In this document: positions 3,652 through 43,848 of the stretch, piece after piece | Layout of the letters: every line of letters starts with the position of its first letter | Numbering within the stretch: position 1 is the first letter of the stretch | Source: Patescibacteria group bacterium | GTDB lineage: Bacteria; Patescibacteriota; Minisyncoccia; Phycocordibacterales; Phycocordibacteraceae | Assembly: GCA_029260935.1 (NCBI GenBank) | Contig: JAJDCJ010000005.1 | Coordinates: 16,073 to 80,072 of the forward strand | Reading direction: 5' to 3' | DNA length: 64,000 nucleotides | The notes under the pieces: model-generated | Database searches by the model: none | Seen by the model: the letters and a program-made list of their open reading frames with translations, nothing else | What the model was told of the DNA's origin: nothing | Position numbers and translations under genes: made by a program

Positions 3652-5125
3652 GAACATATCCAAGCGTTGCATAGGACAGAGCGACAACGACAAGTGCACC
3701 CCACATAAAAGATTGTGGAATAGTGAGGGAAGCAAACGGCAGACCTCCAAACCAGACTGAGACTTTGAGTATATAGATGAGCAGGGCTTCAGTAATAACC
3801 GTTACCGGAAAAGCAATGACGGGGCTTATAAACGAAAGCATACTCGCTATAAATCCAAACGCCATTGCCCATGGAACAGCACCAATAACTGCAACGTTTG
3901 CAATAGGAGAAACTATTGAGACACTTCCAATTGAAACAATCAAAAGCGGTAGCACTGAAGCTTGCGCCACTATGGTAGCACCGGCAATATCACGAATACC
4001 AAAAAACGTGGGAAGAAAAGTGAGTTTTTTTGCCACGGGGTCAGCGGCAAGGATAATGCCGGCCGTTGCCAGAAACGATAACTGAAATGACAGGTTGAAA
4101 AGTAGTATGTAAGGATTTATCAAAACCATAATGGCACCAGCCAGTAATAGCGCGCGAAGCGCGCTATGGGGTCTTTTCAAAACAGACGCCACAATAATCA
4201 GCGTCGCCATTATTGAAGCGCGCACTGTCGTTTCACTTGCCCCTGTCATAAGTGCAAAAGCAATAATGCCGATACCTGCCGTTGAAAAACTCATCACGCG
4301 TGGGAGGAAAAAACTAGTTGTTTTTAAAAAGGCGTGTGCAACCAAAGAAACGTTGTACCCGGACAACACGATCATATGCACAACACCCGCTTTTTGAAAC
4401 GACGTATACAGTTCTTCCCCTAACGATTGACGCTCACCGAGTAACAAACCAGAAAGGAGTGGTGCCTCCGGGTCAGGAAGTATGGTTTCAATACGCCTCA
4501 CCAAAGTGTTTTTTACTTTTTGCAAAAACGAAACTACAGGATTACCACCTGTATGTTTTTCAACTGAAACCTGTGCGAAGGAAACGGTGTGTGTAATATG
4601 TCGTGCATATAAATAACGCTCATAATCAAAGGTGCGCCCTGAGTCAGTTATAAAAGACTCTGGTTTTTTCAACACACCCCTGACACGCACATAATCTCCA
4701 TAAACAATTTCAGTAAATGGATTTGCGGAAACCAGAACCACACCATCTACTTCATTATCGTTTACTGAAGTAACCTTCATACGAAAACGAACGGAAGATT
4801 CCGTATACTCAGGCGACGCAATAACACTACCGAGCACTACACTTTGCCCCTGTTCAAACGCTCCAAGTTCATTTGTGAATGACACATCAAATATAAAAAC
4901 GCGCGCAGTACCTAAGAGAGACGAGAAAAAGAATACACTTAGAATAATATACAATGCCTTTCTGCTGTGTATCGTCAAAAAAGAAAGCGCGAGTGTAGCG
5001 AGCGCGAGTGTAATAAAAAAAAGCAGTGCTATAAATGCACTACTTACTGTTCCTACTAAAACACCGAATACTATACCGCTAACAACTAACGGCAACACGA
5101 GGTTACGCCGGGTTATCCATTGCAT
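3605..5125 (-). CDS. comEC: ComEC/Rec2 DNA internalisation channel (DUF4131 + competence domain), lacking the MBL domain
   Basis: Polytopic membrane protein with an N-terminal OB-like soluble insert and a C-terminal multi-TM competence domain. It sits beside the separate MBL-domain gene. Confidence 0.7.
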   Translation of the reverse strand: MQWITRRNLVLPLVVSGIVFGVLVGTVSSAFIALLFFITLALATLALSFLTIHSRKALYIILSVFFFSSLLGTARVFIFDVSFTNELGAFEQGQSVVLGSVIASPEYTESSVRFRMKVTSVNDNEVDGVVLVSANPFTEIVYGDYVRVRGVLKKPESFITDSGRTFDYERYLYARHITHTVSFAQVSVEKHTGGNPVVSFLQKVKNTLVRRIETILPDPEAPLLSGLLLGERQSLGEELYTSFQKAGVVHMIVLSGYNVSLVAHAFLKTTSFFLPRVMSFSTAGIGIIAFALMTGASETTVRASIMATLIIVASVLKRPHSALRALLLAGAIMVLINPYILLFNLSFQLSFLATAGIILAADPVAKKLTFLPTFFGIRDIAGATIVAQASVLPLLIVSIGSVSIVSPIANVAVIGAVPWAMAFGFIASMLSFISPVIAFPVTVITEALLIYILKVSVWFGGLPFASLTIPQSFMWGALVVVALSYATLGYVLIRGNEKRLLLRSGS

Positions 5126-7680: not shown

Positions 7681-8797
7681 GCGCCTCAATGCCCGGTAAT
7701 GTTCCATCTGCAATAAACTGAAGCATCGCACCGCCTGCAGTTGAAACATGAGTGAAGTGAGTGCGGATCTGTAAATTTTCAATAGCAGCAATGGTGTCAC
7801 CGCCACCAATCACTGAAGTTGCTTTTGCGGCGGCGACATACTTCGCCACTTCCTCGGTTCCTTCGGAAAATCCTTTTTCAAAATTACCTAACGGTCCGTT
7901 CCATAAAATAAAACGAGATTTTTCTATATGTGCCTTGAGTGCCTGTATTGTTTTAGGGCCCACATCAAGCACCATGTCGCGAGGCTCAATTTCATCAACC
8001 TCGCGAACAACTTTCCCTTCAGGGGAATCAATGACAACATCGCTCGGCAGAAGTAGTTTACTATTGATTAAAAATTCTTTTGCATTGGTATTGAAAGACA
8101 CAAGTGAACGGCCCACTTCATGCCCTTGAGCTGCAAAAAAATCATTCGCAAGAGCCCCGCCTATAAACACCTGGTCATATCTATCAAGAAGTGTCTGAAT
8201 AAGTGGCTCCTTTGTGAGGAACTTAGCGCCACCAATAATAGCAAAAGAGGGGCTGGGCGGATGCTGTGCCGGCGCAATACCCTCCATCTCTTGAATAAAG
8301 TGAGGGCCTGCAAAATGTTTAAGAAATGTTGGCACACCAATAATTGACGCGTGGCTTCTGTGTGAGTCAGCAAATGCATCGTTAATATAAACATCTCCAA
8401 AAGATGACAGTTTCTGTGCAAAAGAGTAGTCGTTGTTGGTTTCTCCTGGTTCTCTTCGCGTATTTTCAAGCAGAAGCACCTCGCCGTTTTTTAAATTAGC
8501 GACTTTCGTTTGGGCATCCTTCCCTATTACGTCGCTGGCAAAAAGAACAGACGGCCCTATTTCTTTTTTTAAAATTTCCCAAACTGGTAACAGCGAATCT
8601 GTGGCTTTCCGTCCGATGTGTCCACACACCACCGTTTTTGCACCACCGTGCGCGAGTTTTCTTATGGTTTTTATTGATTCATAGATTCTATAGGTGTTGG
8701 TAACAACGCCACGTTCAATAGGAGCATTGAGGGCTGAGCGCATCAAAACACGCACCCCTGTGAAGTCTTGAGAAAAATCAAATGCAACTACTTTCAT
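7664..8797 (-). CDS. pgk: Phosphoglycerate kinase
   Basis: Full-length similarity to Pgk, including the LLLENTRR motif and a GGGD-type hinge. Confidence 0.9.
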   Translation of the reverse strand: MKVVAFDFSQDFTGVRVLMRSALNAPIERGVVTNTYRIYESIKTIRKLAHGGAKTVVCGHIGRKATDSLLPVWEILKKEIGPSVLFASDVIGKDAQTKVANLKNGEVLLLENTRREPGETNNDYSFAQKLSSFGDVYINDAFADSHRSHASIIGVPTFLKHFAGPHFIQEMEGIAPAQHPPSPSFAIIGGAKFLTKEPLIQTLLDRYDQVFIGGALANDFFAAQGHEVGRSLVSFNTNAKEFLINSKLLLPSDVVIDSPEGKVVREVDEIEPRDMVLDVGPKTIQALKAHIEKSRFILWNGPLGNFEKGFSEGTEEVAKYVAAAKATSVIGGGDTIAAIENLQIRTHFTHVSTAGGAMLQFIADGTLPGIEALKESS

Positions 8798-8811: not shown

Positions 8812-9567
8812 TTACTTAGTAGCCCACTGAGAAACAATAGAAGTAAATGAGTCGGCATGAATACTGGCACGTCCCAATAAAAAACCTCCTGTTTCTCCGT
8901 TTTGAATAATCTCAAGCGCTGATTCTTCGTTTACCGCACCACCGTATAAAATGCGAACCTTGAGTGCGTCTTCTCTTTTAAATTTCTGCGCGAGTGTTTT
9001 GCGAATAAAAATCATCGTGTGCCGTATCGTGCGCCCAGTTGGTGGAAGTGGTGCTCCAATTGCCCACACTGGCTCGTAGGCAAGAATAACTTTCTTAAGC
9101 GATAAGACATCAACAAGCGCGAGCGATTCTAAAATAGAGCGCGCTAAGTCTTCTAAGTATTCTCCGTTTTTGTCACGCGATGATTCGCCAAACGCAACAA
9201 CAGGAGTAAGTTTAGCATCGAGCGCAGCGCCAACTTTTTTCGCGACCGTCTCATCTGTCTCCCCTTGTGCACGTTTCTCTGCATGTCCTATCAAGGCATA
9301 CCGAGCTCCAACGTCTTTTGCAAGCAGAGCTGGAGTTTCCCCCGTATGGGCACCGCTTTCAAAGAAAATGTCCTGCGCCCCAAAAGAAATTCTTTTTCCC
9401 GAATAGTTACGTGCAAGTGGATGCAAAAGAAGCGAGGGCGGGAAAAGTACTACGTCCGCTTTTAACTGACGGGGCAGCCCCTTTTCAATATCCTTAAACA
9501 ACTTCTTCGCTTCTTTTGTAGAGGTAACGTACGACTTCCAGTTACCTGCAATCATTGGTTTTGCCAT
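8812..9567 (-). CDS. tpiA: Triosephosphate isomerase
   Basis: AGNWK N-terminal motif, IGHAEKR and AYEPVWAIG motifs. The start is taken at MAKPMIAGNWK. Confidence 0.85.
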   Translation of the reverse strand: MAKPMIAGNWKSYVTSTKEAKKLFKDIEKGLPRQLKADVVLFPPSLLLHPLARNYSGKRISFGAQDIFFESGAHTGETPALLAKDVGARYALIGHAEKRAQGETDETVAKKVGAALDAKLTPVVAFGESSRDKNGEYLEDLARSILESLALVDVLSLKKVILAYEPVWAIGAPLPPTGRTIRHTMIFIRKTLAQKFKREDALKVRILYGGAVNEESALEIIQNGETGGFLLGRASIHADSFTSIVSQWATK

Positions 9568-9742
9568 ATAAATAAAAGGTTCTGGGTCAGAGGTGTTAGC
9601 TTTTAGCTTTGTAAAACAACCACGACCCGAATACCTACATCCTACCAAACAAAAACTCACATCCGTATTTCAACCCAAGCGAAGGAAAATGGCGAATTGA
9701 AGCACGGTCGCAGAACACAAAGCTCCCCCAGCTCTAGCGGAG

Positions 9743-37917: not shown

Positions 37918-38048
37918 GACAAAACCGCCCGCTTCGCGGTACCATCGCCATTCCAATTCGTCGCGCAGCGGCGCGCCCATTTGCTTTCCGCCGCGCCTGC
38001 GGCGCGGCGGTCTTCCGTCCTCAATTCAGAAGAAGTTTCAATCTGTGC
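37918..38048. repeat. R1b, right (inverted) copy of the 131-bp repeat
   Basis: Reverse complement of 36353-36483 and abutting R2a. Confidence 0.8.
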
Positions 38049-38284
38049 TGACATTCTAACCTTTGCGCGAACCTTTTACGAGAACACTTAGCCGCCTCCG
38101 CTTCGCTCCGGCGGAACCACGCAGCGCCATTCTTTTTGCTTTTCCTTTTTAAAAAACACGCCGACAAAAAATTAGGAAAGCGGAAAAAAGAATGGCGCTG
38201 CTCGGTGGCGCTCCAGATGCGGCGTTGTGGCGGGGGCAACGCCGCATCTTTCGCCCAAAAGGCAAATGCAGTCTTAGGAAAAAT
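38044..38284. repeat. R2a, left copy of a 241-bp inverted repeat flanking the ABC transporter operon
   Basis: About 98% identical (about 5 mismatches) to the reverse complement of 40672-40912. It is internally palindromic (gcagcgccattctttt.../...aaaagaatggcgctgc and gatgcggcgttg/caacgccgcatc) and ends exactly at the stop codon of the substrate-binding-protein gene. Confidence 0.8.
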
Positions 38285-39351
38285 CAAATGTCTAAGAAAG
38301 TCGGAAGTGGACTTTTTGACTCGATGATTCCATTTGATAAGATATAATCTTGAACTGCCATGCCAATTCGTAGATACGAAAACTTTCCGTCTTCGTCAAT
38401 AAGTTCTTGTTCTGCCTCTTTGACCGAACGTGGCAAATATTCCTGTGTCAAAGCGGTTTTATAACCCTCAAGGGTATATTTTGTTGAAGCATTTTCGTCA
38501 AGATATTCAAGACTGTATCTTGCATTGTTGTCGATATCAGAATACACATAGTCAACAGAATCAAACCACATTTTCATAAACGCCTTGATCTCTGATTTCT
38601 TACTCTCTACGACACTCTTTCGTGCGACAATTCCCGTAATATCAGCAAACCCCGCATCTTCCATCGAGAAAACTGAGCGTCCACCTCGATTAAGTGTTTC
38701 AGTGAGTTGGGTCAAGCCAACAGATGCCGCATCAAGACTACCTGCTTCAGCCGCAAGAAATCCTTGATCAAGAGGGGTATCTACAATTTTTAGAGAATTG
38801 GCTGGCACATTGTTTGATGCTGCAAGAGAATAAAGCATCATGTCGAACATTGAACTTTTTTGTGCCCCAATTCTTTTAGATAAAAATTGTGCTACTTTTT
38901 CGCGGTTTTGTAGACCATTTGCGTCTAGTGTTGGTACTTCGTTTTCTCCCCGAAAAGTTACAAAAGCACCTCCCTTAAACACATATGCGGGGTACACATA
39001 TACCAATGGGTCGTTTGTTCCAGCATTTATGTTGTCCGCTTTTGTGAGGTATTCGATATAGCTGGCAAAACCAATATCAATACCTCCTCCAACAACTGCT
39101 TCCATGATGTTTTCCCAAGGTAGAGTAACGAGTTCAATATCGGTCTTATATTTTTCCTCAAGCCCCAAAGGTTCAATAGCAGCTGTCATTGCTAAATCTT
39201 GATAGGGAGATATACCAACTCGCAAAGAACCGTTCGACGACTGATTATTCAAATAAAAGAAAATTCCAACGACAATGACAGCTGCGGCGATAATGAGAAT
39301 CCATTTATACACTCCTACTTTCGCCAGAAAACTATTTTGCTCCATATCCAT
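38284..39351 (-). CDS. ABC transporter substrate-binding protein, NitT/TauT (NMT1/SsuA-like) family
   Basis: N-terminal TM/signal anchor followed by a periplasmic-binding fold. It shares an operon with a NitT/TauT permease and ATPase. Confidence 0.7.
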   Translation of the reverse strand: MDMEQNSFLAKVGVYKWILIIAAAVIVVGIFFYLNNQSSNGSLRVGISPYQDLAMTAAIEPLGLEEKYKTDIELVTLPWENIMEAVVGGGIDIGFASYIEYLTKADNINAGTNDPLVYVYPAYVFKGGAFVTFRGENEVPTLDANGLQNREKVAQFLSKRIGAQKSSMFDMMLYSLAASNNVPANSLKIVDTPLDQGFLAAEAGSLDAASVGLTQLTETLNRGGRSVFSMEDAGFADITGIVARKSVVESKKSEIKAFMKMWFDSVDYVYSDIDNNARYSLEYLDENASTKYTLEGYKTALTQEYLPRSVKEAEQELIDEDGKFSYLRIGMAVQDYILSNGIIESKSPLPTFLDI

Positions 39352-40046
39352 ATTAAGAGATTATCGAATAATGTTGTTAAGACGCCCAAAATCGTCGTCG
39401 CTAAGAGTATAACATCCAGCGAGAAGGTTGCACGGGAAGTTTGGATAAGATAACCAAGCCCCACTTGTGAACCGAGCATTTCGGCAACAACCACAATACC
39501 CACGGCTGTCGCCAGTCCAAAACGGAGCGTTGGCAGGATTGATTCAAGAATTCGAGGGAACCACCAAATCATTGTCATTCGATCAGTTGAGAGGTTGAAC
39601 GATTTAAAAAGTATTTGGTCATGTTCTCGTGGAAACTGGACAACGTTCGCACTCGCAACTAGCACATTGATACCGAGTCCTAATGTAAGGAGAATAACCC
39701 TGCCAACTTCCGAAAATCCAAACCAGAGTAGAAAGAACGGGATGAGCGCTATCGGCGGCACAGCGCGAAGCGCATTGAATGACGGCATAAAAACTTGCAT
39801 GAACCGCAGGCGATGAATAAATAGCGCACCGAAAATACCAAAAGAAATGCCGAGGACAAGAGACACGGCGATTCTTGCCGCCGTAGCGAATGTATGCAAA
39901 AGAAGTGTGTCCTTGAGTTTAATAGCAGCATCGATAACACTTATTGGCGACGGCAAATATCGTTCGGGTACGTTAAAAATAACAACAACACCAACCCAGA
40001 CGATGAGAAGCAAAAAAATACCAATAAAGATTTTAAAATATTTCAT
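39315..40046 (-). CDS. ABC transporter permease, NitT/TauT family
   Basis: Six TM helices and a binding-protein-dependent transport signature region (EMLGSQVGLGYLI). It overlaps both neighbouring genes. Confidence 0.8.
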   Translation of the reverse strand: MKYFKIFIGIFLLLIVWVGVVVIFNVPERYLPSPISVIDAAIKLKDTLLLHTFATAARIAVSLVLGISFGIFGALFIHRLRFMQVFMPSFNALRAVPPIALIPFFLLWFGFSEVGRVILLTLGLGINVLVASANVVQFPREHDQILFKSFNLSTDRMTMIWWFPRILESILPTLRFGLATAVGIVVVAEMLGSQVGLGYLIQTSRATFSLDVILLATTILGVLTTLFDNLLIWIWSKIVFWRK

Positions 40047-40654
40047 ACGCCGTTATTTTTAATTTTCCTCAGATTAGAAAAAGGCGGCTCGCCGTCAAAC
40101 TCAAAAAACTCTGCATCGTCAATAGCAACGTTATCCGTAAAATGAGCCGTCATAATAATCGGGACCTGCGGACATTGTTCGCTTTTGAGAAAATTGAGGA
40201 GGAGGAGTCGCTTTTTTGGATCAATGTAGTTCATGGGCTCGTCGAGCAAAAACATATCGGTATCAGCAACAAAGGTTCTAAATAACTCAACGATGCGACG
40301 TTGTCCAAACGACATCTCGTATGCACGTTTATGTAATATATCCTCGACGAGCGGAAAGAGCGGGTGTGTCTTCAGTTCTTCAACCGGTCGTCGAAGGAAA
40401 ATCGTCAGATTTTCAGTACCAGTCAGCCATGGTGCCAAATTGTCATCTTGCAAAACAAGGAACGACCTTTGTGGCACCAAAAACTCATCTATTGACTTTG
40501 GCTCCAAAACACCATGCAAAATTTTTAACAATGTTGTTTTGCCAGAGCCAGACGGACCGCGAATGATACCGATTCGTTTTGACAACTCAAAATCAAAGTC
40601 TTTGAAGACAGTCGCGTGTTGGTGTGAAAAATTTACCCCTGACACTTTTACCAT
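40043..40654 (-). CDS. ABC transporter ATP-binding protein, NitT/TauT family
   Basis: Walker A GPSGSGKTT, ABC signature (LSGGQ-like MSFGQRR), and Walker B LLDEP. Confidence 0.85.
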   Translation of the reverse strand: MVKVSGVNFSHQHATVFKDFDFELSKRIGIIRGPSGSGKTTLLKILHGVLEPKSIDEFLVPQRSFLVLQDDNLAPWLTGTENLTIFLRRPVEELKTHPLFPLVEDILHKRAYEMSFGQRRIVELFRTFVADTDMFLLDEPMNYIDPKKRLLLLNFLKSEQCPQVPIIMTAHFTDNVAIDDAEFFEFDGEPPFSNLRKIKNNGV

Positions 40655-40671
40655 AGTTTGAATAATACTAG

Positions 40672-40912
40672 ATTTTTCCTAAGACTGCATTTGCCTTTTG
40701 GGCGAAAGACGCGGCGTTGCCCCCGCCACAACGCCGCATCTGGAGCGCCACCGAGCAGCGCCATTCTTTTTTCCGCTTTCCTCATTTTTTGTCGGCGGGT
40801 TTTTGAAAAAGGAAAAGCAAAAAGAATGGCGCTGCGAGGTTCCGCCGGAGCGAAGCGGAGGCGGCTAAGTGTTCTCGTAAAAGGTTCGCGCAAAGGTTAG
40901 AATGTCAGCACA
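40672..40912. repeat. R2b, right (inverted) copy of the 241-bp repeat
   Basis: Reverse complement of R2a. It begins 17 nt upstream of the ATPase start codon, and its outer end is ...gaatgtcagcac. Confidence 0.8.
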
Positions 40913-40967
40913 AAAACAATGAGCCGGGCGTGATAACGCTCGGCGATTTGTTTTGTAGCGAGGAGAG

Positions 40968-41111
40968 GGGAATCGAAAGGCGGAGCCGGTATACAAGGCG
41001 AGGAGGGACGACGAGTGCTTGTCGGCGAGCCAGGGTCGTGAGCCGTAGAAAATTAAGGAATGAAATGACTATAATTTTCACGGACTCCTGACCGACTCCC
41101 TTATCCCGCAC
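40968..41111 (+). repeat. Copy B of the conserved ~150-nt element, ending in a 19-nt copy of the tRNA-Gly(TCC) 3' end
   Basis: Aligns to 32056-32207 and is preceded by hairpin 40921-40948. The terminal cgactcccttatcccgcac is identical to the tRNA 3' end. Confidence 0.6.
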
Positions 41112-41175
41112 CTGAAACGAAGAACATAGCGATGTAACCATTGATATGTTTGAGAGAAGGTGTGAGACAAGCTTT

Positions 41176-41198
41176 GCTTATCCCGCACACGAAACGAA
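41176..41198 (+). repeat. Third partial copy of the att-like motif cttatcccgcacNNgaaacgaag
   Basis: cttatcccgcacacgaaacgaag compared with 41100-41122 cttatcccgcacctgaaacgaag. Confidence 0.5.
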
Positions 41199-41300
41199 GT
41201 TCTTGCATCGTCTCCATAAGCATCCTTGCCTCACACTAAACAAAATCCCCCGCGTACGCGGGGGATTCTACCTAAAACCTAGTGACCTAGATCCTAGTCT

Positions 41301-41667: not shown

Positions 41668-43848
41668 TTATTTTTTATTTCTCTTAGTAATCCATGCCTC
41701 ATACTCTTTAATAACAAGACGAGCTGATTCTTCGGCAGAAAGGTTACTAGTGTCAATCACGAGGTCAAACGGCTGGGTGTTTAAAATATCAATACCATAC
41801 AACTCCTGATAACGGCGTTTTTTACTCTCCTGTCGCATACGTGCATTGTGTTTGATATGCTCAATGGAAGCATCTTCTTCTGCCATACGCCCCTCTTCAT
41901 GAATACTTTGGTGTATGCGCTGTGCTACTAAATCATCAGAAACGGTCACGAACACCTTAAACGAGCGCTGTATCCAGTGGTAGGCAAGGCGCGAGTCAAT
42001 AACGAGATGATTTTCCTTAACGCCAAGTTCTTGAACAATCTCATCAATTTCTCTATCAATAGAAGGGTCCGCTTCTGCTTTTTCAGTAAGCTCATTTACA
42101 GACACGTTACGGTTTTCTGCAACCGATCTAAAAATGTCACCCGCCGAAAAGAGTTGGTACCTGAGTCGCCGGGCAAGTGCTCTGCCTATACTTGAGGCAC
42201 CAGCACCGTGTGTACCCGTTATAGTAATAATTTCCTTTTTTGTTCTTTGTATTACTTCTGTATCTTCTTTTTTTAATTGCTTTAAGATTCTGCCAACAGT
42301 ATGGGAACCCAAGCGCGCGACACTTTTTTCATGTCGTTTAATACTTTGTGTCTGAAAAATACCATACCCTAACACAGCAACCATAGGGAAGAGTGAGGCA
42401 AATGCGATGAGCCCAAACCCGTCAATAAGCGGGTCTCGGCCGGGAATACTTGAGGCAAGTCCCAAACCAAGTGCCGCCACAATAGGCACGGTGACCGTTG
42501 ACGTGGTGACGCCACCTGAGTCATAAGCAATAGGCACGGTTGTTTTTGGAGCGAAAAATGTAAGAATGACAACCACACTGTACCCGATGGCGAGGTACCA
42601 CACAATTGAGTCGCCGTTAATGATGCGGTATGCGCCAAGCAAGATACCTATTCCCACGCCGGACGCAACGGCAATGCGCAGAACAAATGAACGTATCGCG
42701 CCAGCACTTAAGAGCTCAGCTTTGTTCGCAATCGCCGTTAACGCTGGCTCAGCAATAGTGGTGGCAAAACCGATAGTGAAAGCGAAGAGATAGATAAGGA
42801 AAATGTTTCCCTTTACGGCAAGTGCTACTGCAATCGTCTCGCCAACAGGAAAGAGCCCAAGTTCAAGACCAACAACAAACGCATACAGTCCTAAAATAAC
42901 AAGAATAAATCCAAAGACATGAGTTATCGGAGAGGTGAGAGGTTTTCTGATAACTACCAAATAGAAAAAGAGAACCGTGAGTATAATCGGTGTCACGTCA
43001 CCTATAGTTGCAACGAACTGTGTAAGGTATGGAGTAAACGATGATGAGGCAAAAAATGCCACTGCCGCCTGCATTGACTGCGCCGCAGACCCAACAAGCG
43101 TGGCGCCTGAGAGCGAAGTAGCACTGATAACACCCGAGTACGCAACAACTCCGTAGAGTTGCACAAAAATCATCGGCAGTAGTGAAGCAAAAGCAATTAA
43201 CCCAAAGCCATCTATGATGGGGTTTCTGTTTTTTAAACTTGAGGCAACGCCAATACCTAAAGCCGCGATCAGTGGCACGGTGACCGTTGACGTGGTGACG
43301 CCACCTGAGTCGTATGCCAGTCCCACAATTTCCTGCGGTGCAAAATAGGTAACCGTCAGTGCAATAACGTAGCCGGAAATTATATACCAATGAATAGGGT
43401 GGTTGAGAAAAATACGAACAACACCGATGACAATTGCTACCCCCACAGAAAATGCCACGACAAGGCGAAGTATGAGTGCATCAATCTGTCCGTCGCTAAT
43501 AACTGCCGCTTTGTGGGCAATAGCCAACAAAGCGGGTTCTGCAATGGTGGTGGCAAAGCCAATAACAAACGCAAAAATAAGAACCCAAAACCTACGCTTT
43601 GAAGAAGCGAGTTGTGTGGCAAGATTTTCCCCAAGAGGGAAGACTCCCATTTCAAGTCCACGCATAAAAAGAGCAAGCCCGATACCAACAATTGCCAGCC
43701 CGAGCACCATGCTTGGTAAATTATCGGGAGTTGTTCGCAATATAACGAACTGGAAAAAAGCAATGACTCCGATAATAACGGTAAGGTCTAGAAATGATCT
43801 ACGAATATCGCCGACAAAGGTATAAAAATGCTTCTTGAGCTTCGGCAT
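41668..43848 (-). CDS. Fusion protein: tandem-duplicated polytopic membrane domain (DUF1538-like, two homologous halves) fused to a C-terminal cytidylate-kinase-like P-loop domain
   Basis: A continuous 726-aa ORF. The internal repeat pairs FATTIAEPAL / AYDSGGVTTSTVTVP are each present twice. The C-terminal 200 aa carry ITGTHGAGASSIGRALARRL, a P-loop in a cytidylate-kinase-like arrangement. Confidence 0.65.
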   Translation of the reverse strand: MPKLKKHFYTFVGDIRRSFLDLTVIIGVIAFFQFVILRTTPDNLPSMVLGLAIVGIGLALFMRGLEMGVFPLGENLATQLASSKRRFWVLIFAFVIGFATTIAEPALLAIAHKAAVISDGQIDALILRLVVAFSVGVAIVIGVVRIFLNHPIHWYIISGYVIALTVTYFAPQEIVGLAYDSGGVTTSTVTVPLIAALGIGVASSLKNRNPIIDGFGLIAFASLLPMIFVQLYGVVAYSGVISATSLSGATLVGSAAQSMQAAVAFFASSSFTPYLTQFVATIGDVTPIILTVLFFYLVVIRKPLTSPITHVFGFILVILGLYAFVVGLELGLFPVGETIAVALAVKGNIFLIYLFAFTIGFATTIAEPALTAIANKAELLSAGAIRSFVLRIAVASGVGIGILLGAYRIINGDSIVWYLAIGYSVVVILTFFAPKTTVPIAYDSGGVTTSTVTVPIVAALGLGLASSIPGRDPLIDGFGLIAFASLFPMVAVLGYGIFQTQSIKRHEKSVARLGSHTVGRILKQLKKEDTEVIQRTKKEIITITGTHGAGASSIGRALARRLRYQLFSAGDIFRSVAENRNVSVNELTEKAEADPSIDREIDEIVQELGVKENHLVIDSRLAYHWIQRSFKVFVTVSDDLVAQRIHQSIHEEGRMAEEDASIEHIKHNARMRQESKKRRYQELYGIDILNTQPFDLVIDTSNLSAEESARLVIKEYEAWITKRNKK

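Follow-up and report, generated by a model that had tools for sequence, protein, structure and literature searches.

Long inverted repeats around an ABC transporter operon in a Patescibacteria genome as probable arms of a serine recombinase element inserted at a tRNA gene

We analysed a stretch of 64,000 nt from the genome of a Patescibacteria group bacterium (contig JAJDCJ010000005.1; hereafter the window), in which two 242-nt inverted repeats, R2a and R2b, enclose an operon encoding an ABC transporter. It is very likely that these repeats are copies of the P arm of an integrative element of 4.55 kb, which encodes a large serine recombinase (LSR) and lies at the 3' end of a tRNA-Gly(TCC) gene. 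The boundaries of the element are those of one insertion, its architecture and its location at tRNA genes are conserved across a family of related loci, and the motifs at its ends keep fixed registers relative to a short common core. The LSR of the window presumably catalysed the insertion.

Two abutting pairs of inverted repeats

We searched for inverted repeats over the whole window and retrieved only two long pairs. The arms of R2 (38044-38285 and 40671-40912) are 98% complementary over their 242 nt, are spaced by 2385 nt and differ at five positions (38119, 38151, 38158, 38173 and 38246). A previous sequence-only reading of the window had described them as near-perfect inverted repeats that bracket the operon exactly at its start and stop, and our analysis agrees: R2a ends within the stop codon of the open reading frame (ORF) of the substrate-binding protein (38284..39351, minus strand), and R2b starts 16-17 nt upstream of the ATPase start codon at 40654. 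The sub-palindromes reported within each repeat are also present (27-nt arms with a 47-nt loop, plus a 13-bp GC stem), and folding an R2 arm as DNA revealed strong self-structure (-57.6 kcal/mol, z = -4.7 relative to shuffles). The same reading had placed the promoter of the operon inside R2b; a scan for sigma-70-type promoters found none on the minus strand of this repeat. The independent Logan assembly of run SRR15505513 contains a 2445-nt contig identical to positions 38256-40700 of the window. Its ends are exact reverse complements over 30 nt, showing that the assembly graph branches where both arms begin.

The second pair (36353-36483 and 37918-38048) spans 131 nt, is 100% complementary and overlaps R2a by 5 nt (TGTGC, 38044-38048). 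It brackets the LSR gene, which extends at its 3' end into tRNA-Gly(TCC). The LSR has the Pfam domains Resolvase (PF00239, 1.7e-19), Recombinase (PF07508, 1e-12) and Zn_ribbon_recom (PF13408, 1.3e-09), in this order, and its N-terminus reads YARKSTEED. Its relatives among PDB structures are SPbeta YokA and the A118 integrase. The NCBIfam matches are weak and below the cut-off (CcrB, CcrA and XisF, the first being the best), and exact-protein look-ups gave no match for the 507-amino-acid (aa) protein. The features of the locus are listed below, with the strand where one applies; the attachment-site names follow our reading of the junctions, which is detailed in the next section.

36285..36356, plus strand: tRNA-Gly(TCC), the integration target (ARAGORN; Rfam tRNA, 63 bits)
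36353..36357, plus strand: first copy of the core, GCACA, at the putative attL crossover region (same 5 nt at all three junctions; single copy in the empty-site contig L087)
36353..36483: outer arm of repeat A (putative P' arm of attL), encoding the last ~45 recombinase codons, from codon 463 of 507
36346..37869, minus strand: LSR gene, 507 aa (Pfam and translation), with its stop codon within the tRNA gene on the opposite strand
37918..38048: inner arm of repeat A, called A' (putative inverted P' arm), 48 nt upstream of the recombinase start
38044..38048, minus strand: second copy of the core, TGTGC (inverted GCACA), centre of the putative internal inverted attP (A'/B) and overlap of both repeat pairs
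38044..38285: inner arm of repeat B, R2a (putative inverted P arm), from the repeat finder, with motif CCTTTGCGCGAACC at 38060-38073
38284..40654, minus strand: cargo, the ABC transporter operon (Pfam)
40654..40043, minus strand: ABC ATPase (Pfam)
40046..39315, minus strand: ABC permease (Pfam)
39351..38284, minus strand: NMT1/SsuA-like binding protein (Pfam)
40671..40912: outer arm of repeat B, called B', R2b (putative P arm of attR), with the motif at 40883-40896 and the third copy of the core, GCACA, at 40908-40912
36358..40912: whole inserted element, 4555 bp counting one core copy (from L087)
40913..41111, plus strand: native tRNA flank, outside the element, comprising a hairpin and T-run (40923-40953), a structured repeat of ~155 nt and 19 nt that duplicate the 3' end of the tRNA (41093-41111)

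The similarity of the transporter to NCBIfam models is below the cut-off and of the SsuA/SsuC/TauC/NtrB type, i.e. sulfonate, taurine or nitrate. Rfam, even in permissive E-value mode, revealed no known RNA family in the arms, and the GC content of the element is not distinct from that of its surroundings.

Both modules are part of one insertion

The predicted empty site joins the end of the tRNA to the sequence that follows position 40912. A metagenome scan with TTATCCCGCACAAAAACAATGAGC retrieved one exact contig, FRDC01001808.1 (labelled L087), in which the junction of TTATCCCGCACA with AAAACAATGAGC is exact and tRNA-Gly(TCC) is directly followed by the same hairpin, the T-run and a related block of ~150 nt. 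Positions 1985-2011 of this contig match 36331-36357 of the window, positions 2007-2088 match 40908-40988, and the two matches overlap on a single GCACA. Hence, positions 36358-40912 are one insertion with a 5-nt core and without long duplication: GCACA is found at both ends of the 4555-bp insert and once in the empty site.

This pentamer is made of the last two bases of the tRNA stem, the discriminator base and CA. The tRNA/A junction (36353-36357) and the B'/flank junction (40908-40912) both contain it as such, and the A'/B junction contains it inverted. We read these three junctions as combinations of half-sites, in which tRNA/A would be attL, the inverse of B'/A would be a complete inverted attP, and B'/flank would be attR. 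The hairpin directly after the putative attR (40923-40944) is terminator-like. An arrangement like that of 40913-41111 is also found after tRNA-Gly(GCC) at 32012-32212 and after tRNA-Gly(TCC) in L087.

The direct repeats of the tRNA 3' end (36338-36357 and 41093-41111) resemble the ends left by tyrosine integrases. We rejected them as such, given that most relatives lack the duplicate. The copy at 41093-41111 is not the end of the element because the empty site sets the boundary at 40912 and the 40913-41111 block pre-exists there. The ORFs of the region that we scanned against Pfam include no tyrosine recombinase.

The native flank includes a ~155-nt repeat of its own. Its copies at 32046-32200 and 40947-41101 are 89% identical and lie ~35 nt downstream of two different tRNA-Gly genes; it is also found at the empty site in another organism (about 2060-2175 of L087). 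The last ~20 nt of the neighbouring tRNA are copied at the end of the repeat, whose 5' end is similar to the same stretch in reverse complement. Both ends pair in the consensus fold, in which both partners differ at four of the pairs. The repeat may represent a structured RNA, or else what is left of an older element after collapse. Two more partial copies of the tRNA-Gly(TCC) 3' end, at 41100-41122 and 41177-41199 and each followed by (C/A)(T/C)GAAACGAAG, might have been left behind by previous insertions into this site.

The layout is conserved across a family of elements in Patescibacteria

We scanned one genome per species with the recombinase, confirmed at least 578 relatives, and analysed the best 80 loci. 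Layout counts at these loci were obtained by self-comparison and tRNA prediction, and related recombinase loci or contigs are labelled L001, L002, etc. The relatives of the recombinase number thousands. The best 120 are 67-86% identical to it, and their named sources are mostly lineages of Patescibacteria; none was found in IMG/VR.

An inverted repeat of ~131 nt (range 100-148) brackets the recombinase gene in 65 of the 70 loci with full context. The 3' end of the gene faces a convergent tRNA gene in 69 out of 86 (Gly, Leu, Arg, Ser, Glu, Val, Ala and Lys), and the arm typically overlaps the 3' end of the tRNA by about 4 nt. Cargo was counted at the 40 recombinase genes with at least 3 kb of upstream sequence, and 22 of them have a second, abutting repeat pair (122-434 nt) around 1.1-6.1 kb; the overlap between the two pairs is mostly 4-9 nt. 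This layout is present in the complete-chromosome records CP060229.1 and OY970382.1. A direct duplicate of a tRNA fragment occurs in only four loci and is absent from most.

The cargo differs at almost every locus, even between elements with near-identical arms, and includes transporters, methylases, oxidases, secreted proteins and defence-like ATPases. A small HTH_3 gene is encoded in 15 of 25 related cargos but not in the element of the window. It adjoins the internal attP, diverging from the recombinase gene, in 14 of these 15.

Some loci contain chains of bracketed units (L001, with six units and two recombinases, L024, L036 and L074), in which each element has its A arm directly against the P arm of the following one, as expected if one tRNA end had been the target of successive insertions. 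L036 has three tandem recombinase elements with identical 178-nt spacers (4702-4881 and 8277-8456), each made of the native flank of tRNA-Ser and an 18-nt fragment of its 3' end, which suggests that the attachment site itself was duplicated. Downstream of the recombinase in L001 (6831-13155) and L002 (4680-9262) there are three cassettes, each with a small HTH gene (NUDIX and methyltransferase; DHDPS and aminotransferase; MFS). These are separated by local GC-rich palindromes (GCGAGGGCGCGGCGGAA..TTCCGCCGCGCCCTCGC), a kind of boundary unlike the recombinase arms. Beside tRNA-Leu in L002 (about 9436-9584), ~100 nt fold back on themselves; both ends are recombinase-arm tips, and they meet at a GC hairpin. 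This resembles a recombinase module that collapsed onto its two arms through a deletion between the palindromes inside them. Positions 1-127 of L002 are identical to 9463-9589, forming a direct repeat around the whole 9.46-kb array.

Four loci (L024, L030, L070 and L073) are binned as Bdellovibrionales or Methylomirabilis, and protein P0050 is named Deltaproteobacteria, all according to record titles. The tRNA and arm layout of the four matches that of the Patescibacteria loci, and such labels may reflect mis-binning or spread beyond the phylum. The searches that we made of the literature on mobile elements of Patescibacteria, also known as the Candidate Phyla Radiation (CPR), returned no description of this architecture. 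The family is large and apparently undescribed.

Attachment sites share a short core, and the P arm has a motif found in the tRNA T-arm

Alignments of the three junctions in 23 elements revealed a common core of at least 4 nt. We built profiles of the half-sites from 41 loci, where the core on the recombinase-sense strand is GCGG (16), GTGA (15), GTGC (7), GTCC (2) or GTGG (1). It corresponds to the last stem bases of the tRNA, the discriminator and the next base. The cargo-side P arm is conserved outward from the core as TGA.aT..TAaCCTTTGCgCGAACc.AtTTcGaa, and the recombinase-side P' arm as AaAa.GAaACTTC. The tRNA side is the T-arm, GGGA.TCGAACCC, and apart from a few A's the far chromosomal flank has no conservation. 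In 35 loci the P arm has the motif CGAAC from position +20 onwards, and in 40 the tRNA has it from +14, a shift of 6 bp; the motif was not seen in the profiles of the P' arm or of the flank. The conserved P-arm tip adjoins A' in 40 of the 41 loci. The two R2 tips are the only places in the window with the P-arm motif. The part of R2 that recurs in other loci is limited to its first 40-70 nt (within nt 1-70) and always lies at the arm tips of related recombinase elements.

The displacement of CGAAC is comparable to the register shift between attP and attB of serine integrases. For example, the motif bound by the zinc-ribbon domain of A118-family integrases is at positions 16-24 in attP and 5 bp nearer the centre in attB (PMC3783163). 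The profiles thus suggest that the enzyme recognises the universal T-arm of tRNAs, and this putative T-arm reading would explain why the family has so many different tRNA targets. The recombinase subunits would read the P-arm tip, TGA.AT..TAACCTTTGCGCGAACC, and the P'-arm tip, ..GAAACTTC, which also encodes the last residues of the enzyme. In the chromosome they would read the tRNA T-arm, with CGAAC 6 bp closer to the core than in the P arm.

The arms evolve together. The part of the LSR that they encode, the C-terminus, is the least conserved along the protein (aa identity of 0.33-0.51, relative to 0.6-0.9 elsewhere, in 45 loci), even though A and A' of the same element match perfectly in 36 of 68 elements and reach at least 98% identity in 52, with a tail down to 90%. 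Gene conversion is most likely the cause of this concerted evolution, being the simplest, and the near-constant inner boundary of the arms would follow because the DNA beyond it is non-homologous. We also considered that recombinase activity maintains the identity of the arms. This was unsupported, since loci with diverged arms mostly keep intact recombinase ORFs.

An integrative element with two inverted attP sites

The model that best accounts for these patterns is an element made of a recombinase module within the 131-nt repeat (A/A') and a cargo module within the 242-nt repeat (B/B'). The two repeat pairs would abut because a complete inverted attP (A'-TGTGC-B) lies between the modules. 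The outer arms, A and B', would be the halves of another copy of attP, split by recombination with the tRNA site at GCACA, which would produce attL (tRNA/A) and attR (B'/flank). The predicted circular form consists of two unique segments between two inverted repeats of ~373 nt, each with a recombinase site inside. The internal attP might serve in autoregulation, as part of a divergent control region between HTH and recombinase genes, or be a second usable attP. Other candidate roles are self-inversion driven by the recombinase and the provision of homology arms for the exchange of cargo.

Several observations weigh against this model. The profiles reveal no obvious symmetry between the P and P' arms, and the collapse of repeats by short-read assemblers may partly inflate the number of perfect arm pairs. 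We found no excised circle and no circular contig among 100 related loci, and IMG/VR gave no relatives. Searches by junction do not distinguish a circle from the internal site because the two junctions are reverse complements. Contigs of ~4.7 kb looked like candidate free circular forms, but were rejected as ordinary host contigs. A circle with two identical attP should integrate both ways; yet, 69 LSR genes face the tRNA and one is flipped. This bias requires selection, e.g. against read-through from the tRNA, or some other asymmetry. Finally, we identified no recombination directionality factor, and the small HTH gene that 15 out of 25 related cargos encode is missing from the element of the window.

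We tentatively propose a bolder version, whose parts together we hold to be doubtful: the twin inverted attP would be a device for directionality or control that dispenses with a separate excision factor, and the integrase would read the T-arm, be naturally retargetable and derive its specificity from the 4-nt core alone. In that case, either attP could be chosen for integration from a circle with two repeats and a topology like that of the 2-micron plasmid. Alternatively, the recombinase could silence its own gene by turning it to face the tRNA.

Alternative explanations

The sequence-only reading had suggested that the repeats delimit a portable or invertible cassette. The first part stands in the sense that a mobile element has the operon as its cargo module, but this element is of the LSR type, lies at a tRNA 3' end and is not a composite transposon. 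A rival idea, to which we give little credence, is that each bracketed unit is an independent cassette, which forms a circle with a palindromic site (A'/A or B'/B) and is serially inserted at the tRNA, as in integrons. The chains of units in L001, L024, L036 and L074, the differences in cargo between near-identical arms and the collapsed recombinase unit that adjoins tRNA-Leu in L002 are compatible with this. However, the sites that flank a single unit are inverted and the common cores GTGA and GTGC are not palindromic; with such sites, and cores that are generally non-palindromic, a serine recombinase cannot excise a single unit. Independent units are also at odds with the position of the recombinase module, which adjoins the tRNA in all 69 loci with a convergent tRNA, and with that of the conserved P-arm tip, next to A' in all but one of the 41 profiled loci. 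The extra cassettes of L001 are bounded by different, local GC-rich palindromes.

The second part, invertibility, is weakly supported and can be taken in two ways. That modules can flip is supported by rare cases among the relatives. One of the 15 HTH-bearing cargos (the L089 family) is mirrored as a whole, and in L071 the recombinase module is flipped, i.e. tRNA-Ser is followed by the A arm and the gene reads away from the tRNA. Together, they indicate that modules can flip, and that one can do so alone. A phase-variable switch, in which the recombinase or homologous recombination would often flip the operon between its arms and turn the transporter on and off, is another matter, and we judge it improbable. 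Besides the flipped relatives, it is favoured by the long near-perfect inverted repeats next to a serine recombinase gene, and has a precedent in the C segment of phage P1, whose inverted repeats of ~0.6 kb have the cix crossover sites at their outer ends. But orientation was the same in all nine contigs of two related elements from independent samples (4/4 for L001-L004; 5/5 for L089, L090, L091, L095 and L096), and homologous cargos compared between loci also have the same orientation. The family shows a strong bias in cargo (14 to 1), as in the recombinase genes. The two sites that flank the cargo (A'/B and B'/flank) have unrelated outer halves and do not make an attP/attB pair. Moreover, after an inversion the operon would have practically the same 242 nt in front of it, with no promoter uncoupled, which makes an ON/OFF promoter switch logically unlikely. 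The contigs from several samples and the cargo comparisons revealed no inversion polymorphism within populations, and the few flips are fixed. We thus saw no sign of fast phase variation and consider it unlikely for the transporter.

There is very little room for a composite transposon, or for chance flanking of the operon by two copies of a miniature inverted-repeat transposable element (MITE) or insertion sequence. The operon is indeed flanked by two near-identical and internally palindromic copies of 242 nt. However, these are the only two in 64 kb, there is no transposase ORF, and the 5-nt sequences outside the arms are inverted, i.e. there is no direct target duplication. From the empty site it is evident that the operon arrived together with the recombinase module, in a single 4.55-kb unit. 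An abundant dispersed MITE, which the sequence-only reading had named as the finding that would undo its proposal, is similarly at variance with the restriction of arm recurrence to nt 1-70, at the arm tips of LSR elements.

The reading had also argued that the repeats are not an assembly artefact. We agree, and regard a chimeric fold-back or the mis-join of a mixed population as having a negligible chance: contigs do often break in these repeats (many related ones start inside the A' arm, indicating that the repeats break assemblies, and the Logan contig ends at both arms), but this layout is shared by over 60 loci, which come from many studies and assembly programs and include complete chromosomes, the independent assembly has unique-to-arm junctions on both sides, and the arms co-vary between elements. 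This family-wide recurrence excludes an artefact and leaves chance out of the question.

Comparison with known systems

The element shares features with several systems. Like the LSRs of phages (phiC31, Bxb1, A118/LI and SPbeta SprA/YokA), its enzyme combines resolvase, recombinase and zinc-ribbon domains, and the insertion has a short common core without a long target duplication. CGAAC, about half a helical turn further out in the arm of the element than in the chromosomal half-site, may correspond to the distal motif of these integrases (PMC3783163). Unlike them, the recombinases of the Patescibacteria family are at most 27% identical to phage or plasmid LSRs in annotated collections, are absent from IMG/VR, and target the extreme 3' end of many different tRNA genes, where only one chromosomal half-site, that of the tRNA, is conserved. 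The integrated element keeps what appears to be a complete inverted attP and long perfect repeats, has no phage genes, and has no identified directionality factor.

SCCmec (CcrAB/CcrC) and the ssrA islands of Dehalococcoides (DsiB) are also small non-replicative islands with variable cargo, in which the recombinase gene is beside attL and reads towards the target RNA gene, and which accrete in tandem at one site (PMC3146451). CcrB was the NCBIfam model closest to the LSR of the window, although below the cut-off. However, these islands use pairs of recombinases (CcrA and CcrB, or DsiA and DsiB) whereas the Patescibacteria elements have one, and the latter insert after the acceptor stem and not in the T-loop. 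The direct target repeat of 15-20 bp of the Dehalococcoides islands is not general in the Patescibacteria family. The term "inverted repeat" has no occurrence in the text of the paper describing them (PMC3146451).

Serine invertases (Hin, Gin and that of the P1 C segment) offer long inverted repeats with crossover at their outer tips, beside a serine recombinase gene. They differ in the size of the enzyme (~190 aa, relative to 507 aa here). The flanking sites in the window are hybrids with different outer halves, the orientation is stable across samples, and the whole structure is itself an insertion. The 2-micron plasmid of yeast is an autonomous replicon, with FLP and FRT inside a pair of inverted repeats of 599 bp, and FLP is a tyrosine recombinase. 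The predicted circle of our element is similar, with its two unique segments between inverted ~373-nt repeats that each contain a recombinase site, but no replication gene and no free circle were seen for the Patescibacteria element. Integrons also collect small and highly variable cargo units at one chromosomal site. They do so with the tyrosine integrase IntI, attI, and a folded attC at one end of each cassette, instead of a serine recombinase and repeats that bracket modules.

Other observations in the window

Three small cysteine-rich ORFs were found by eye between tRNA genes (31628-31762, 31783-31895 and 33337-33497), with segments such as ..CYCTCPCE.., ..CSKCRCNCPNCGCDGECCTRCSK and ..CCGCKSCSQPGGCNCK... 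An ORF of 726 aa (41668-43848) matches the DUF1538 region in two stretches, followed by a cytidylate-kinase-like domain, and has an internal direct repeat of 191 nt (42373-42563 and 43162-43352, 70% identical).

Significance

Patescibacteria have tiny genomes, for which few mobile elements have been described. With at least 578 loci in species-representative genomes, this family is apparently a major vehicle for accessory genes in these bacteria, and its repeats explain why CPR assemblies frequently break beside tRNA genes. Its LSRs are far from characterised ones (at most 27% identity) and seem to read the T-arm with a short exchangeable core, which makes them of interest as integrases for genome engineering. 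An internal inverted attP that is identical to the outer arms while drifting between elements has no counterpart in the literature that we searched. As judged from these sequence comparisons, it may point to a principle of control or maintenance in serine-recombinase elements.

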